Positions 18,208 to 21,793 of a DNA stretch of 43,340 nucleotides are shown here, piece after piece. Numbering within the stretch: the stretch's first letter is position 1; the number at the start of each line of letters is the position of its first letter. The notes beneath the pieces were generated by a model that was not told where the DNA came from, ran no database searches, and worked only from the letters and a program-made list of their open reading frames with translations. A program made the position numbers and the translations under genes. This DNA is from an uncultured Pseudomonadota bacterium (lineage in GTDB: Bacteria; Pseudomonadota; Gammaproteobacteria; Xanthomonadales; Ahniellaceae): NCBI GenBank assembly GCA_937996755.1, contig CALKUS010000135.1, positions 1 to 43,340 of the forward strand. The letters run 5' to 3'.

Positions 18208-19350
18208 TCACTTGCCGAGCTTCACGAGGCCTTCCAGCACCCCGTCGAGGCCGCCGAAGACGGTGATCTTGTCGATCTTCTCCGTCACCTTCTCGAGCGT
18301 CTCGAGCTCCTTCAAACGCTTCAGCACCGGGCTGCCTTCCATGAGCTTCGCGGTGTTGAGCAGCGAGCGCGTCGCCGCAGTCTCCTCGCGGCGCTTGATC
18401 ACGTTCGCCTGCGCGGCCTTCTCGGCCTGCACCACCTGGTTGAGGATCTCCTTCATCTCACCCGGGAGGATCAGGTCCTTGACGCCCACGCTGTCGAGCT
18501 CGATGCCGAAGGCGGCGAGCTTGCCCGACGCGTACGCGGCGACCGAAGCGTCCAGCTCGCCCTTGTTGCCGAGCAGGCCGTCCAGCAGGCGCGTGCCGAT
18601 CGCCTGGCGCAAGCCGAACTGCAGCTCGCGGTACAACGTCGACTGGTAGTCGGCGAGACGCGTACGCGCGGCCACCGGATCGACGATGCGGTAGCTCGCC
18701 GAAAGGTTCGCACGCAGCGAGACCTTGTCGCGGGTCAGGATTTCCTGGCCCGAGACTTCGATCGACTGCTGGCGCAGGTCCATCACCTCGACCTGCACGC
18801 TGCGCTGGAACTTCCAGAAGCCATGCACGCCCGGCTCGAGCGTACGCACGAAGCGACCGTTCACGAACAGCATGCCGACGCTCGCGGCCGGGACTTCACG
18901 CTGCACGATGGCGGCAGCCGCCTCGCGCAGCAGCGACGTCGAAACCGGCTGCGCCAGCGCACGCACGATCGCATCCGGCACCGCGAGCTCGCTCGCGATG
19001 TCGACGCACTCCACGCGCACCTGCACCGGGCCCTTCCAGAAGACCTGGCGCGCGCCCGGCGACAGGATCGCCGACAGCTTGCCGTCCTTGTGGACGAGGC
19101 CCACCTCGTTCTCGCCGACCACGACGAGCTCGAGGTGCCGTTCGGTCAGCGCGCGGTTCTCGCGCACGTACACGTCGGCCTTCGCGAACTTCGCTTCCGG
19201 CTCGGTGACGTCCTCGACCGCGAACTGACGGCGGCCGAACGGATCGAAGATCCAGTACACGCCCGGGCCCAACACGGCGCTCAAGCGCCCATTACGGAAC
19301 TCGAGGCCACGCTGGTACTGGGCGATGACGAGACGATTGATCAAAGCCAT
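18208..19350 (-). CDS. SPFH/band-7 (stomatin-prohibitin-flotillin-HflC/K) domain protein
   Basis: Start MALINRL is preceded by AGGAAA-N6. It has the SPFH core (LDxVGVKDLILPGEMKEILNQVVQAEKAAQANVIKRREE) and a coiled-coil C-terminus. No NfeD partner lies adjacent. Confidence 0.8.
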   Translation of the reverse strand: MALINRLVIAQYQRGLEFRNGRLSAVLGPGVYWIFDPFGRRQFAVEDVTEPEAKFAKADVYVRENRALTERHLELVVVGENEVGLVHKDGKLSAILSPGARQVFWKGPVQVRVECVDIASELAVPDAIVRALAQPVSTSLLREAAAAIVQREVPAASVGMLFVNGRFVRTLEPGVHGFWKFQRSVQVEVMDLRQQSIEVSGQEILTRDKVSLRANLSASYRIVDPVAARTRLADYQSTLYRELQFGLRQAIGTRLLDGLLGNKGELDASVAAYASGKLAAFGIELDSVGVKDLILPGEMKEILNQVVQAEKAAQANVIKRREETAATRSLLNTAKLMEGSPVLKRLKELETLEKVTEKIDKITVFGGLDGVLEGLVKLGK

Positions 19351-19714
19351 GATCGTTTCCTCATTCATCGCGCATCGCGTTCGATTCGCCGACGCTCCCC
19401 GCGTCGTACCCGGGCCGCGATGCATCGCCCGGTGTTGCTTCGGAATATGGCCGGGCCCACCCCACGCCCGCGCGCGGGAGCGGAAGGCCGGCGTCGCGTC
19501 GCGCGCATGGCGCATCGCTTCGTTGCGACGTCATCGACGGCGCAGCGAACACGACGCCGCATGCGCGGCGCATCGACGCCGGGCACTCCGCCCGCAGGCG
19601 CGACGTGCGCCGTGCCGCATCGATCCGATGACGCGATCGACCGCACCGGGATGGAGCCCGGTGGAACGCGTTGCCGCGTCCCGGTGTTGCTTCAGACAGC
19701 AGTCTTTCCACGAC

Positions 19715-19785
19715 TGTTTCGGAGCGGGATTCGAACCCGCCACCTCAAGGGTTGCCTTGAGCTCTGACCGACTGAGCTATCCGAT
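19715..19785 (-). pseudogene. tRNA-like remnant X1. It has tRNA D-arm and T-arm sequence, but its anticodon arm is replaced by a 7-bp stem with a 4-nt loop (CTCAAGG-CAAC-CCTTGAG). The acceptor stem pairs at only 5 of 7 positions, and the 5' end abuts the CCA of tRNA-Asp.
   Basis: Reverse complement: GCCATCGGATAGCTCAGTCGGTCAGAGCTCAAGGCAACCCTTGAGGTGGCGGGTTCGAATCCCGCTCCGAAAC. There is no 7-nt anticodon loop and no encoded CCA. Confidence 0.4.
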
Positions 19786-19859
19786 GGCGGCCCCGGCCGG
19801 ACTCGAACCGGCGACTTCCGGTTCGACAAACCGGCGTTCTCACCTCTGAACTACGGGGC
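19784..19859 (-). tRNA. tRNA-Asp (anticodon GTC), CCA encoded
   Basis: Hand-folded: GGCCCCG-TA-GTTC-AGAGGTGA-GAAC-G-CCGGT-TTGTCGA-ACCGG-AAGTC-GCCGG-TTCGAGT-CCGGC-CGGGGCC-G-CCA. The acceptor pairs 7/7, there is a GG in the D-loop, and the discriminator is G73 as expected for Asp. Confidence 0.8.
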
Positions 19860-20290
19860 CCGTGCCTGCACGCTCGACGCCGCGGATCGGTACGCGGTGG
19901 CCCATCGGGCTCCGCGCCAGGCGAACCGGGATCGCTCCCGGAGCTCGCTATCGCTGTTCCGCAGCGTCGCTACGCACATCATGTCGACGCCGCTCGCGCG
20001 AGCTCGCGCGTTGCGTTCGTCGGAATTGGTCGGGCCCATCCCACGCCCGCGCGCGGGAGCGGAAGGCCGGCGTCGCGTCGCGCGCAGGCGCGTCGCTTCG
20101 ATGCGACGTCGTCGACGCCGCAAGGAACACGACGCCACAGGCGCGCGGCATCGACGCCGGGCACTCCACCCGCAGGCGCAACGAGCGCCGTGCCGCATCG
20201 ATCCGTTGCGAGCGATCGACCGCACCGGGATGGAGCCCGGTGGAGCGCGTTGCCGCGCTCCGGTGTTGCAAGGACAGCAGCCGTTTCAGG

Positions 20291-20364
20291 GCTGTGGAGC
20301 GGGAGTTGAACCCGCGACCGTCGAGATATCATCTCGATGCTCTACCCGTCTGAGCTATCCATTG
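20291..20364 (-). pseudogene. tRNA-like remnant X2. It has a canonical cloverleaf body with an Ile-type anticodon GAT, but the acceptor stem is mispaired at positions 2-3, its 5' end overlaps the CCA of tRNA-Arg by 2 nt, and it has no CCA.
   Basis: Reverse complement: CAATGGA-TA-GCTC-AGACGGGTA-GAGC-A-TCGAG-ATGATAT-CTCGA-CGGTC-GCGGG-TTCAACT-CCCGC-TCCACAG-C. It is homologous in position and sequence to X1. Confidence 0.4.
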
Positions 20365-20439
20365 GCTTCCCCGGCAGGATTTGAACCCACGACCTCCGGC
20401 TTCGTAGACCGGTGCTCTACCTGGCTGAGCTACGGGGAA
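20363..20439 (-). tRNA. tRNA-Arg (anticodon ACG), CCA encoded, U1-A72 first pair
   Basis: Hand-folded: TTCCCCG-TA-GCTC-AGCCAGGTA-GAGC-A-CCGGT-CTACGAA-GCCGG-AGGTC-GTGGG-TTCAAAT-CCTGC-CGGGGAA-G-CCA. The acceptor pairs 7/7, and the anticodon arm resembles E. coli Arg-ACG. The T-stem has two wobble pairs. Confidence 0.7.
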
Positions 20440-20845
20440 CGAGTACGAATCCCGTCGCGGAACGGTACGCGGTGGCCCAACGGGCTCCGCGCCAGGCGAT
20501 CCGGATTCGCATCCGTAGATCGCTATCGCTGTTCCGCAACGTCGTTACGCACGCCGTGTGACGAGCCGCGCATCGCGCGTCGCATTCGTCGAATCCTGAT
20601 CGACGTCTCTCGGGTGCTGCAGCAATCGCGCGTCTTCGCCATATCGCTTCGCGCATCGATGCGCGTCGCCGCCCGTTCGCCCCGTTGCAGGGCGACTGGC
20701 GCATGGCGGTGGCGCCACGCTTCGCGTGTCGCCCTTGCTGCAGCACCCGCAGTCCGGCCGCGCGTCCGTCCCGAACGCGTCGACCGTTCGCCGCGCCGGC
20801 ACTCGGCCGGAGCGGCTCGCGCACGACGACACGCGTCGGCATGCG

Positions 20846-20920
20846 CGGAAAACAAAAACCCCCGGAAACTCGCGTCTCCAGGGGTCTTTTGCACCCGTGG
20901 AGGCCTGCGCCGCAGGCCTC
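20846..20920. terminator. AT-containing bidirectional intrinsic terminator downstream of nadD: an A-tract, hairpin CCCCCGGAAACTCGCGTCTCCAGGGG, a T-tract, and a second perfect hairpin GGAGGCCTGCGCCGCAGGCCTCC
   Basis: GGAAAACAAAAACCCCC...CAGGGGTCTTTTG. Read on the minus strand it gives hairpin + TTTTTGTTTTCC. It is about 220 bp beyond the nadD stop. Confidence 0.65.
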
Positions 20921-21136
20921 CCGTTGTCGGTGAGGCCTACGCCGTCGTATCGAGTCCGCGCGGCATCGCGCAGCGACCGAAGTCGCCGGCGCTGATCAGC
21001 GCGTGTTCGTTGTGGCGGTTGGCGTTCATGCGTCTCTCGAATTCCCGTGGGAGCGACTTCAGTCGCGATCTTCCCGTCGAAGGGCGCGCACTATACGCCG
21101 ACGCAACCGCGCGTCAATAGGTTCCGGCAAATATTT

Positions 21137-21793
21137 TCAGCTGCCGTACAACGCGTGCTGGCGGATGTAGTCGTCGACGGCGGCGGGCACGAGGTAGCGC
21201 GCGCTGCCGCCACGCGCGAGCGCGGCGCGTACGGCGCTCGCGGAGATTTCCAGCGCGGTGACTTCGAGCGGTGCGCAACGTCCCGCCGGAGAATCGCCGA
21301 GCTCGGCGATGTCGCCGACGCGACGCGCGTACCACTCGCTCGCCAGCTCCGCTTCGAAGACGCCGCCGTGGCCGGGCCGCGTGAGCGCGACGATGTGCGC
21401 GTGCGTGAACAGCTCGCGCCAGCGATGCCAGGTCGACAAGCCGGCGAATGCATCGGCGCCGAGCAGCAACACGAGCGGACGCGACGGGCCGTATTCCATG
21501 CGCAGCTGCGCGAGCGTGTCGACCGTGTACGACGCGCCCGCGCGCTCGAGCTCGCGCGGATCGGCGAGCAGGCGCTGCTGCCCGGCGAGCGCGAGCTCCA
21601 GCATCGCCATGCGCTGCGCGGCGCTCGCGAGCGGCTGCTCGCGGTGCGGCGGCACGCTGGCGGGGATCATGTGCACGTGCGCGCCGAGCGCCTCGCCCGC
21701 CTCGAGCGCGACGCGCAGGTGCGCGTTGTGGATCGGATCGAACGTGCCGCCGAGCACGGCGACGGGACCATGGCCGTCGGCCAGGACGCTCAT
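21137..21793 (-). CDS. nadD: Nicotinate-nucleotide adenylyltransferase NadD
   Basis: 218 aa from MSVLADG with the (H/T)xGH motif (GGTFDPIHNAHL). The start overlaps the holA stop (ATGA). The upstream part of the 586-aa track ORF is a fusion artefact. Confidence 0.9.
   Translation of the reverse strand: MSVLADGHGPVAVLGGTFDPIHNAHLRVALEAGEALGAHVHMIPASVPPHREQPLASAAQRMAMLELALAGQQRLLADPRELERAGASYTVDTLAQLRMEYGPSRPLVLLLGADAFAGLSTWHRWRELFTHAHIVALTRPGHGGVFEAELASEWYARRVGDIAELGDSPAGRCAPLEVTALEISASAVRAALARGGSARYLVPAAVDDYIRQHALYGS

Follow-up and report, generated by a model that had tools for sequence, protein, structure and literature searches.

The closest described relative of the RNA treated here is b7a-tRNA, which adjoins genes for Band-7 proteins and for RtcB. 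It was predicted by Burroughs and Aravind (2016), and a preprint that refers to it presents it as a prediction without experimental validation and proposes that it is functionally interchangeable with YrlA (bioRxiv 10.1101/312249). In Anabaena, one repressor, TrcR, governs a cryptic tRNA array, the HNH gene next to it, rtcB and an operon for a slipin-family protein, and all four are induced by translation inhibitors (PMC10272220, PMC9938897). A tRNA array unit comprises at least 20 tRNA genes at a density of at least 2 per kb (Tran et al. 2016, PMC4758250), and the RNA-repair enzyme RlaP, an RNA-ligase-associated nucleotidyltransferase, restores damaged tRNA in vitro (PMC12776372). The locus described here lies in contig CALKUS010000135.1 of an uncultured Ahniellaceae bacterium, and the whole analysed stretch of 43,340 nucleotides (nt), with a base composition of 70% G+C, is called the window. 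Directly upstream of a gene for an SPFH/Band-7 protein, positions 19444-20541 very probably are two tandem copies of a structured RNA of ~520 nt, each composed of a 5' domain, a partner tRNA, a tRNA-like element that is called X and is taken to be a b7a-tRNA, a mimic of an anticodon stem-loop, a GNRA hairpin and a 3' domain.

With the same high confidence, we infer that this RNA is transcribed either as the 5' leader of the Band-7 gene at 19350..18208 or just ahead of that gene. As a whole, the locus is probably best explained as a duplicate of a Band-7-associated RNA that would work with a Band-7 assembly in a response to tRNA damage. The kind of RNA is already known as a computational prediction, to which the window adds a member, and what may go beyond the published description is the fusion of X to the CCA of a partner, the exchange of cassettes, the triplets that are hypervariable within a conserved frame on two to three loops, the architecture of ~0.5 kb and the duplication in tandem. 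The abstract of the 2016 article of Burroughs and Aravind in Nucleic Acids Res reportedly names 'SPFH/Band-7 modules' and 'a novel tRNA-like molecule' as putative RNA-repair scaffolding cofactors. In the literature searched, neither a second paper using the term b7a-tRNA nor an experimental study of it was found. Band-7-associated tRNA-like RNAs were predicted a decade ago, and the window and its relatives now give a concrete and testable picture of them.

The two-unit locus and its parts

On the minus strand, read 5' to 3', leuS, holA and nadD (which ends near 21137) are followed by a small promoter/open reading frame (ORF)/terminator unit, repeat unit 2, repeat unit 1, the Band-7 gene, and then rsfS and rlmH, with a gene for a pyridoxal phosphate (PLP)-dependent decarboxylase inserted on the other strand between the Band-7 gene and rsfS. 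The structured part spans 20541..20023 in unit 2 and 19966..19444 in unit 1, and its components, the leader and the gene are the following.

20453..20541, minus strand: 5' domain of unit 2, an outer helix P1 around the hairpins P2 and P3 (columns 1-89 of the nine-unit alignment, RNAalifold); P2 is GCGATC..CGGAT-GCGA-ATCCG..GATCGC
20363..20439, minus strand: partner of unit 2, a canonical-looking tRNA-Arg(ACG) (ARAGORN; Rfam 62.5 bits, full model)
20289..20364, minus strand: X2, with a 4-bp acceptor stem TGGA/TCCA, canonical D and T arms and the 7-nt loop ATGATAT
20278..20294, minus strand: anticodon-stem-loop mimic of unit 2, CAGCC-CTGAAAC-GGCTG, with the compensatory stem CAGTC/GACTG in unit 1
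20242..20261, minus strand: GNRA hairpin of unit 2, GGAGCGCG-GCAA-CGCGCTCC (RNAalifold columns 291-310, with compensatory changes)
20023..20241, minus strand: 3' domain of unit 2, several helices and the terminal hairpin TCCCGCGC-GCGG-GCGTGGGA (RNAalifold)
19878..19966, minus strand: 5' domain of unit 1 (P1-P3), a copy of 20453-20541
19785..19860, minus strand: partner of unit 1, a canonical-looking tRNA-Asp(GTC) with loop TTGTCGA, G73 and CCA (ARAGORN; Rfam 72.2 bits)
19716..19786, minus strand: X1, with a 5-bp acceptor stem TCGGA/TCCGA and, instead of an anticodon arm, a hairpin of 7 bp capped by the tetraloop CAAC
19700..19716, minus strand: anticodon-stem-loop mimic of unit 1, CAGTC-GTGGAAA-GACTG
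19663..19682, minus strand: GNRA hairpin of unit 1, GGGACGCG-GCAA-CGCGTTCC (RNAalifold)
19444..19662, minus strand: 3' domain of unit 1 (unit comparison, nine-unit alignment, RNAalifold)
19351..19443, minus strand: leader from the RNA to the start codon, with hairpin CCGGGC..GCCCGG and ribosome-binding site (RBS) GAGGAAA; kept in the related loci L002, L021, L113 and L114
18208..19350, minus strand: SPFH/Band-7 ('slipin') gene, 380 amino acids (aa), Pfam PF01145 (E=6e-33)

Both units and all four tRNA or tRNA-like calls are on the minus strand, and these four calls, all within the two units, are the only ones that ARAGORN makes in the window: tRNA-Arg(ACG) at 20439..20363 and a 'tRNA-Ile(GAT)' at 20364..20289, which is X2, and further tRNA-Asp(GTC) at 19860..19785 and a 'tRNA-???' with a 2-nt anticodon at 19786..19716, which is X1. 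The Rfam tRNA family RF00005 matches the Asp and Arg tRNAs over its full model span, and X2 (47.8 bits, model positions 4-67) and X1 (42.7 bits, positions 3-68) over part of it, from which it follows that the acceptor stems of X1 and X2 are truncated. The tRNA family is the only Rfam family that matches any part of a unit, and no tmRNA is reported by ARAGORN or Rfam. Readings of the unit as YrlA, T-box, tmRNA or mascRNA were rejected, as their Rfam scores lie far under gathering or there is no match whatever.

The original prediction, which was made from the letters of the sequence, had described a unit of ~580 bp that is present twice at 19449-20610 and is ~90% identical between its differing tRNAs, with tRNA-Asp(GTC) in unit 1 and tRNA-Arg(ACG) in unit 2. 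This description is accurate: the units (~578 bp) are spaced 575-579 bp apart and are 88% identical overall, the identity is 86%, 89%, 95% and 97% in the blocks of the flanks as compared with 74% in that of the tRNA, and a 31-nt flank motif occurs exactly twice where 0 occurrences are expected by chance. The details that it gave for the tRNAs also hold. X joins the encoded CCA without any spacer in either unit, its first paired base coming directly after it; X1 has a hairpin of 7 bp with a 4-nt loop (CTCAAGG-CAAC-CCTTGAG) where the anticodon arm should be; X2 combines a GAT loop with a defective acceptor stem; and the Asp and Arg partners share the CCGGT/(A|G)CCGG anticodon stem and the CCCCG/CGGGG acceptor core, so that, judged by these shared stems, the two could plausibly be anticodon-switched paralogues. 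The Arg partner has a 7-bp acceptor stem, G73 and the encoded CCA, and its D loop has U, not A, after GG (position 20).

That the spacer is itself structured was found with an alignment of nine units, i.e. both window units and those of L002, L021, L023, L107, L108, L109 and L111. RNAalifold gives 135 consensus pairs for this alignment, 63 of which show at least one compensatory double change. In the 5' half, the consensus consists of P1 enclosing P2 (with a GNRA-type tip) and P3, all three with compensatory changes, then the partner cloverleaf and the X cloverleaf with a 4-bp acceptor stem. In the 3' half, a short hairpin directly after X is followed by the GNRA hairpin, in which the differences between unit 1 and unit 2 are paired changes, and by the ~220-nt 3' domain with a conserved end hairpin. 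The flanks of the two units are ~90% identical around differing tRNAs because it is the RNA of the flanks that is constrained, and the tRNA modules that change fast or can be exchanged.

Invariant motifs in the 5' domain of unit 2 are CAGCGA, CCTGGCG and GCGTACCG; this domain was recovered by nhmmer in 9 related loci, and the sequence of the 3' domain is kept in 6-7. A candidate long-range helix in the 3' domain of unit 2, GGGCTCCATCC / GGATGGGCCC, is 88.9% paired and has one covarying pair, and that it closes the 3' domain in the window is a tentative assignment. In one distant sub-clade the same covarying helix (GGAAACGCCCC/GGGGCGTTTCC) is visible by eye at a fixed position and with paired changes, and a generic test for such a helix by the longest complementary stretch, with a median of 10 vs 9.6 in shuffles of these GC-rich sequences, gave no better result than the shuffles. 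Iterated nhmmer searches with the window 5' and 3' flanks recovered only the window's own clade (6-9 loci), and a strict regular expression for the 5' motif (CTGGCRYG...GTGTACC) found 19 of 69 loci, this pattern being too rigid. For distant members, the sequence of the flanks allows no alignment.

Conserved frame and variable modules of the RNA

The X elements were scored in 62-63 independent loci. Throughout 62 of these the T stem GCGGG/CCCGC is near-invariant, the acceptor pairs 4-7 are formed in 92-100% of loci and pairs 1-3 in 29-55%, which is about chance level, and in 44 the X 5' end has a CCA no more than a few bases away. The loop has a frame of C32 (77%), T33 (77%), A37 (89%) and A38 (82%), with C, A or G at position 33 in 23% of the loci, and encloses a hypervariable triplet. 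Positions 34-36 have entropies of 1.94, 1.51 and 1.41 bits, and 26 triplets occur, the commonest of which are GAT (14 loci) and CAT (8 loci). X bodies that are near-identical can carry different triplets, such as CGG in L028, GAA in L029, GAT in L039 and L042, and CGT in L043. Where two X elements differ at no more than 3 of 46 body positions, which is so for 113 pairs, the body differs at 3.9% of positions, the triplet positions 34-36 differ in 72%, 54% and 51% of the pairs, position 37 in 14% and position 38 in 25%.

The same pattern is found in the nearest relatives of the window. Within ~2.1 kb, between about 20546 and 18379, L012/L013 (the Band-7 protein is identical to that of the window) differ from the window at some 6-9 positions, and three of these (20332, 20330, 20328) are in the X2 loop, where ATGATAT is changed to GTCAGAT. 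This loop is CTGATAA in L113 and CCGATAA in L002, in surroundings of nearly identical sequence, and the X1-type arm of L114 is CAAGG-GAAA-CCTTG, i.e. it has a GAAA tetraloop. As had been noted from the sequence, neither X1 nor X2 is normal as a tRNA: in place of the 7-bp acceptor stem with discriminator and CCA of an elongator tRNA they have stems of 5 bp (X1) and 4 bp (X2) without CCA, and in place of a 5-bp anticodon stem, 7-nt loop and U33 there is a 7-bp stem with a 4-nt loop in X1, whereas the window X2 loop ATGATAT conforms. ARAGORN gives the X elements of L027-L111 real amino-acid identities (Ile, Met, Leu, Thr, Phe and others). For annotation it matters that X elements called in this way as tRNA-Ile, Leu, Met etc. 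would inflate or distort the tRNA gene counts of genomes and metagenome-assembled genomes (MAGs).

A second loop of this type is that of the hairpin after X. With a stem of at least 4 bp and a 7-nt loop, this hairpin is present in 52 of 63 loci, compared to 25% of shuffled tails, and its loop has C32 in 69%, T33 in 75% and A37 in 81%, with 23 different triplets. The X triplet and that of the mimic are unrelated, with 2 of 52 loci having identical and 0 having complementary triplets, and an intramolecular codon-anticodon pairing of the two is therefore not supported.

The partner tRNA is exchanged between related loci. Single Arg-type units, with a 7-nt-loop X, are found in L002, L021 and L113, a single Asp-type unit with a tetraloop X is found in L114, and the two types stand in tandem in the window, L011 and L013; L107 and L108 have an Asp-type partner, as L114 has, combined with a 7-nt-loop X. 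At the level of sequence, the two window units are therefore two allelic unit types, each of which occurs singly at the same site in sister strains. In L109, a GNRA-tetraloop mimic (50.5 bits) takes the place where L108, with near-identical flanks, has tRNA-Asp (74.6 bits), and tetraloop mimics are the partner also in L059, L060, L071 and L111. U33 is near-universal in tRNAs, and the Arg-like partners of L002 (loop GCGCGAA) and L023 (loop TCGCGGA) have C33. In L012 (549-660) and L113 (~688-757) the Arg-type partner is split by a ~70-nt insertion in the T arm, which contains a T-arm-like hairpin (GGCGGTGCGAATCGCC) as well as another one, CCGAG-CGTGT-CTCGG, and is of no obvious known intron type. 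This insertion is identical in the independent samples ERZ15185022 and SRR12398461, which rules out an assembly chimera in L012, since L113 has the same allele. A large clade, finally, has no partner tRNA, and its differently built 5' domain ends with ..CCACCA right before X. The partner is thus a replaceable module that need not decode, as it is swapped, has C33, is interrupted, has a tetraloop or is absent in relatives. When the original prediction spoke of 'every true tRNA' as being fused to a tRNA-like sequence, this needs to be qualified in view of the tetraloop, C33 and split partners of the relatives; the window copies are complete.

These observations bear on the possibility that the locus is an ordinary tRNA operon, in which Asp and Arg are working spare tRNAs of a miniature stress-induced array, X is no more than a substrate for RNase P, whose cleavage gives them their exact CCA 3' ends, and the Band-7 gene is only co-regulated. 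The window partners score as full tRNAs with G73-CCA, X begins directly after the CCA, large tRNA arrays are found upstream of the same gene family in 9 loci, and the window Arg anticodon arm (CCGGT-CTACGAA-GCCGG) recurs unchanged in a tRNA-Arg of the L080 array, all of which fits such an operon. It is nevertheless quite improbable, as X occurs also in the loci without a tRNA-type partner, partners can have the aberrant forms just described, and a mere processing signal needs neither an anticodon-loop frame nor a second anticodon-stem-loop mimic nor a 3' domain.

The Band-7 gene and its linkage to the RNA

A search of a contig collection with the flank 20-mer CACCGGGCTCCATCCCGGTG gave 9 chance matches in unrelated phyla and one true relative, L002, from a MAG, in which a single unit precedes the same Band-7 gene. 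The same two units as in the window are found in L011 and L013, where the Band-7 protein is identical, and one Arg-type unit in the same holA-nadD context is found in L021, where this protein is 87% identical. In L023 (71% identity), the pair of tRNA and X and a similar downstream RNA lie in a wholly different neighbourhood. In relatives at 67-73% protein identity the synteny holA-nadD-[RNA]-Band7-rsfS-rlmH is kept. A metagenome scan with an alignment of the Band-7 protein added 80 loci at 46-57% identity. Where the upstream DNA is long enough, ARAGORN nearly always makes a same-strand tRNA or tRNA-like call upstream of the Band-7 homologue, with hardly an exception among 60 metagenomic loci and none among the close relatives. 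The 'anticodon' identities of these calls are Met, Pro, Phe, Ser, Ile, Val, Thr, Leu, Lys, Arg, Asn, Ala, Tyr and undetermined. In about 68 related loci the X 3' end is 220-630 nt from the Band-7 start codon and in the same orientation; for X1 of the window the distance is 365 nt. As the RNA precedes the gene across relatives, including L023 with its differing context, the cassette belongs to the Band-7 gene and not to a chromosomal site. A scan of viral contigs with the Band-7 protein yielded one truncated locus, and the system is therefore not phage-borne, as far as that scan shows.

The original prediction had left a choice between a decaying tRNA array at a former integration hotspot and a transcribed tandem with a function of its own. 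Decayed tRNA genes, or what repeated integration left behind at a tRNA hotspot, might be suspected because X1 and X2 are not standard tRNAs, with their short acceptor stems, missing CCA and, in X1, a tetraloop, and because nadD and rsfS commonly stand in an arrangement into which this locus is inserted. Such an origin is most improbable. The D and T arms of X are near-invariant and accompanied by compensatory changes in a family of 62-63 loci; the position relative to the Band-7 gene and the synteny are conserved, the former even in the differing genome context of L023; and the window has no integrase, no att-type repeat and no partial 3'-tRNA direct repeats, and a GC content of 0.62-0.73 at the locus, like that of the surroundings. 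Protein identities of 46-87% exclude recent copies of one mobile element, and the X elements are complete, independent cloverleaves and not copies of the 3' halves of Asp or Arg. The other option, the functional tandem, pointed in the direction that the data support, although it missed the Band-7 link, the structured spacer and the prediction of b7a-tRNA.

A scan for terminators found no intrinsic terminator between unit 1 and the Band-7 start codon, and from this sequence context a co-transcription of the RNA with the Band-7 gene is likely. This raises the possibility that the whole RNA is the 5' untranslated region that controls Band-7, and that its tRNA-like modules are sites of processing or sensing: cleavage by RNase P or by an anticodon nuclease would alter the stability of the mRNA or expose the RBS, and the gene would be switched on under tRNA attack. 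The constant orientation and the range of distances in about 68 loci, the missing terminator in the window, and the conserved hairpin and leader beside the RBS in relatives are all in line with such a regulation, and the Salmonella rtcBA operon is reported to be controlled by tRNA-fragment sensing (PMC7790460). As the sole explanation such a cis-regulatory leader is rather unlikely, since an RNA of ~520 nt with at least 10 conserved helices and a tandem duplicate exceeds the needs of known leaders, and since insertions resembling repetitive extragenic palindromic (REP) sequences in L002, L021 and L113 indicate that the exact spacing from RNA to RBS is unconstrained. It is compatible with the preferred reading, in which the RNA works together with the Band-7 protein, and both might apply.

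In a distant clade (L049, L053, L060, L064, L073, L076, L083), the last ~45 nt of the leader are a conserved hairpin followed by ACCACCAGAGCCAAC-AAGGAGA, and an ACCACCA that resembles a tRNA 3' end is directly beside the ribosome-binding site, which might be relevant to regulation.

The Band-7 protein has a stomatin-type SPFH domain in its C-terminal half, with a match to a stomatin structure of the PDB at E=3e-28. In an AlphaFold model with a mean predicted local distance difference test (pLDDT) score of 78.8, residues 1-190 form three similar beta-sheet repeats without a predicted transmembrane helix and without a Pfam match, and the SPFH domain after residue ~190 is followed by long C-terminal helices. 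The predicted fold resembles those of stomatin, HflK and QmcA, which form cages or rings. In Foldseek, the major vault protein gives the longest alignments to the model (422-486 columns), and the comparison of this predicted structure with the vault is suggestive only.

As to the neighbours, the PLP-dependent decarboxylase (PF00282; 16733-18169, plus strand) is found only in the closest relatives L011, L014, L113 and L114, and its absence in L107-L111 marks it as a lineage-specific insertion. Between nadD and the RNA, 20849-21117 on the minus strand is a self-contained unit with a promoter-like TTGACG-16-TATAGT (21117..21090), a 30-codon ORF MNANRHNEHALISAGDFGRCAMPRGLDTTA (21029..20937) and a strong GC hairpin with a T-run (~20885..20849). 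At the same place in relatives, ORFs of 34-39 aa are called (L107 1879-1983, L111 940-1059), L025 has a similar arrangement of promoter, ORF and terminator, and the unit may be a gene for a small protein or an sRNA. A REP-like palindrome, GCGACTGAAGTCGCTCCCAC, lies with an inverted copy near the small ORF (window ~21045-21068); in relatives such palindromes are found between the RNA and the Band-7 start (L002 ~835-895, L021, L113 ~1150-1215).

Possible role and comparison with known systems

Genes connected with RNA damage are found near the RNA in related loci, for which 2.5-5 kb of flanking DNA were scanned for neighbours. In 4 of 84 loci the Band-7 gene is followed downstream by that for RlaP (PF10127, E=1e-87), and in 23 of 84 the RNA is directly preceded by a gene for an HNH endonuclease of ~190 aa. 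Nine loci (L033, L052, L072, L074, L080, L093, L095, L099, L100) have runs of 5-16 extra tRNA genes upstream of X, often with the HNH gene between the array and the RNA; within the upstream 2.5 kb, ARAGORN finds a total of 5-18 tRNA genes per locus. The trio of tRNA array, HNH gene and slipin gene in related loci is of the kind that is co-regulated with rtcB in Anabaena, where the slipin may be of another subfamily.

It is quite possible, if tentative, that the RNA and the Band-7 protein form a ribonucleoprotein that responds to damage of tRNA or of translation. The RNA would be made together with the protein and act with it, in parallel to Ro60/YrlA and to vault/vault RNA, and RNase P would probably separate the pieces at the tRNA modules. 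The conserved elbow of D and T arms would supply a tRNA-like recognition, and the loops with their C32-U33...A37-A38 frame and free triplet could serve as a bait, a decoy, a sensor or a selector for enzymes that are directed at the anticodon, anticodon nucleases among them, or else as a scaffold on which damaged tRNAs are delivered to repair enzymes. A more specific version, which is unlikely as it stands, sees the RNA as a modular bait array in which up to three anticodon-like loops (partner, X and mimic) retain the canonical frame and exchange their triplets fast between strains, and whole modules are swapped as cassettes. If this were true, there would be an arms race at the RNA level with anticodon-specific nucleases or other tRNA-targeting toxins of competitors and phages, and a soluble vault- or stomatin-like Band-7 cage would hold or present the bait as a decoy, as a sensor or as a guide to the damaged tRNA that is to be repaired. 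This would amount to an innate-immunity or repair system with its specificity written in the anticodon of a tRNA mimic, and diversifying selection together with the ~0.5-kb multi-domain architecture would be new beyond the 2016 prediction.

Several points weigh against a damage-response RNA of the b7a-tRNA kind. None of the 25 ORFs scanned in the 43-kb window is a gene for RtcB, RlaP, Ro60 or an HNH protein, so that the link to RNA repair rests on the relatives, and PADLOC has no model that matches the Band-7 protein. The equation of X with b7a-tRNA goes back to a secondary citation and to the abstract of the 2016 article. By appearance, the Asp and Arg partners of the window are fully functional, and they might be nothing more than working tRNAs. 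The search pattern itself imposes part of the invariance that the X counts show for the D stem and T loop, and relaxed constraint, in place of selection, could in part account for the variability of positions 34-36; that the 32/33/37/38 frame is conserved speaks against pure drift, in a comparison that is informal.

If the triplets set a target specificity, bacteria would have a new way to sense, decoy or repair tRNA damage, and a parallel to the Ro60/Y-RNA and vault/vault-RNA particles. Like b7a-tRNA, X is tRNA-like, directly upstream of and co-oriented with a Band-7 gene, matches RF00005 above the gathering score of 29 and no dedicated Rfam family, and adjoins an RNA-repair gene (RlaP) in relatives of the window. 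Unlike in the b7a-tRNA module, there is no RtcB or RlaP in the window, and the window X is fused to the CCA of a full-length tRNA inside a structured RNA of ~520 nt, the whole unit of which is duplicated. Another related system is that of YrlA and Ro60 (Rsr; rsr-yrlBA-rtcBA operon, RF02553), in which, as here, the RNA mimics the tRNA elbow of D and T arms and is encoded beside its protein partner (a putative one in the present case) in a context of RNA repair. RF02553, for which gathering is at 69 bits, scores only 25.0 and 21.8 bits in the window, a Ro60-binding stem is missing, the window ORFs scanned include no TROVE gene, and X keeps a complete anticodon arm, which YrlA lacks.

The stress-induced tRNA arrays, such as the Anabaena trn operon/L-array, consist of extra and often non-canonical tRNAs that are HNH-linked and co-regulated with rtcB and slipin under translational stress, and the family resembles them in the arrays of 5-16 tRNAs before the Band-7 RNA in 9 related loci. 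In contrast to tRNA array units, the window has only two tRNAs and two mimics, i.e. four calls in 43 kb, and X-type elements are non-decoding; some relatives have 9-18 tRNAs within 2.5 kb. The vault, finally, consists of the major vault protein, TEP1 and vault RNA, and the predicted model of the Band-7 protein shares with it N-terminal beta-repeats, an SPFH-like shoulder and a long helix, in addition to the association with a small structured RNA. The Band-7 protein has 380 aa compared to ~890 of the major vault protein, and vault RNAs are not tRNA-like in the manner of X.

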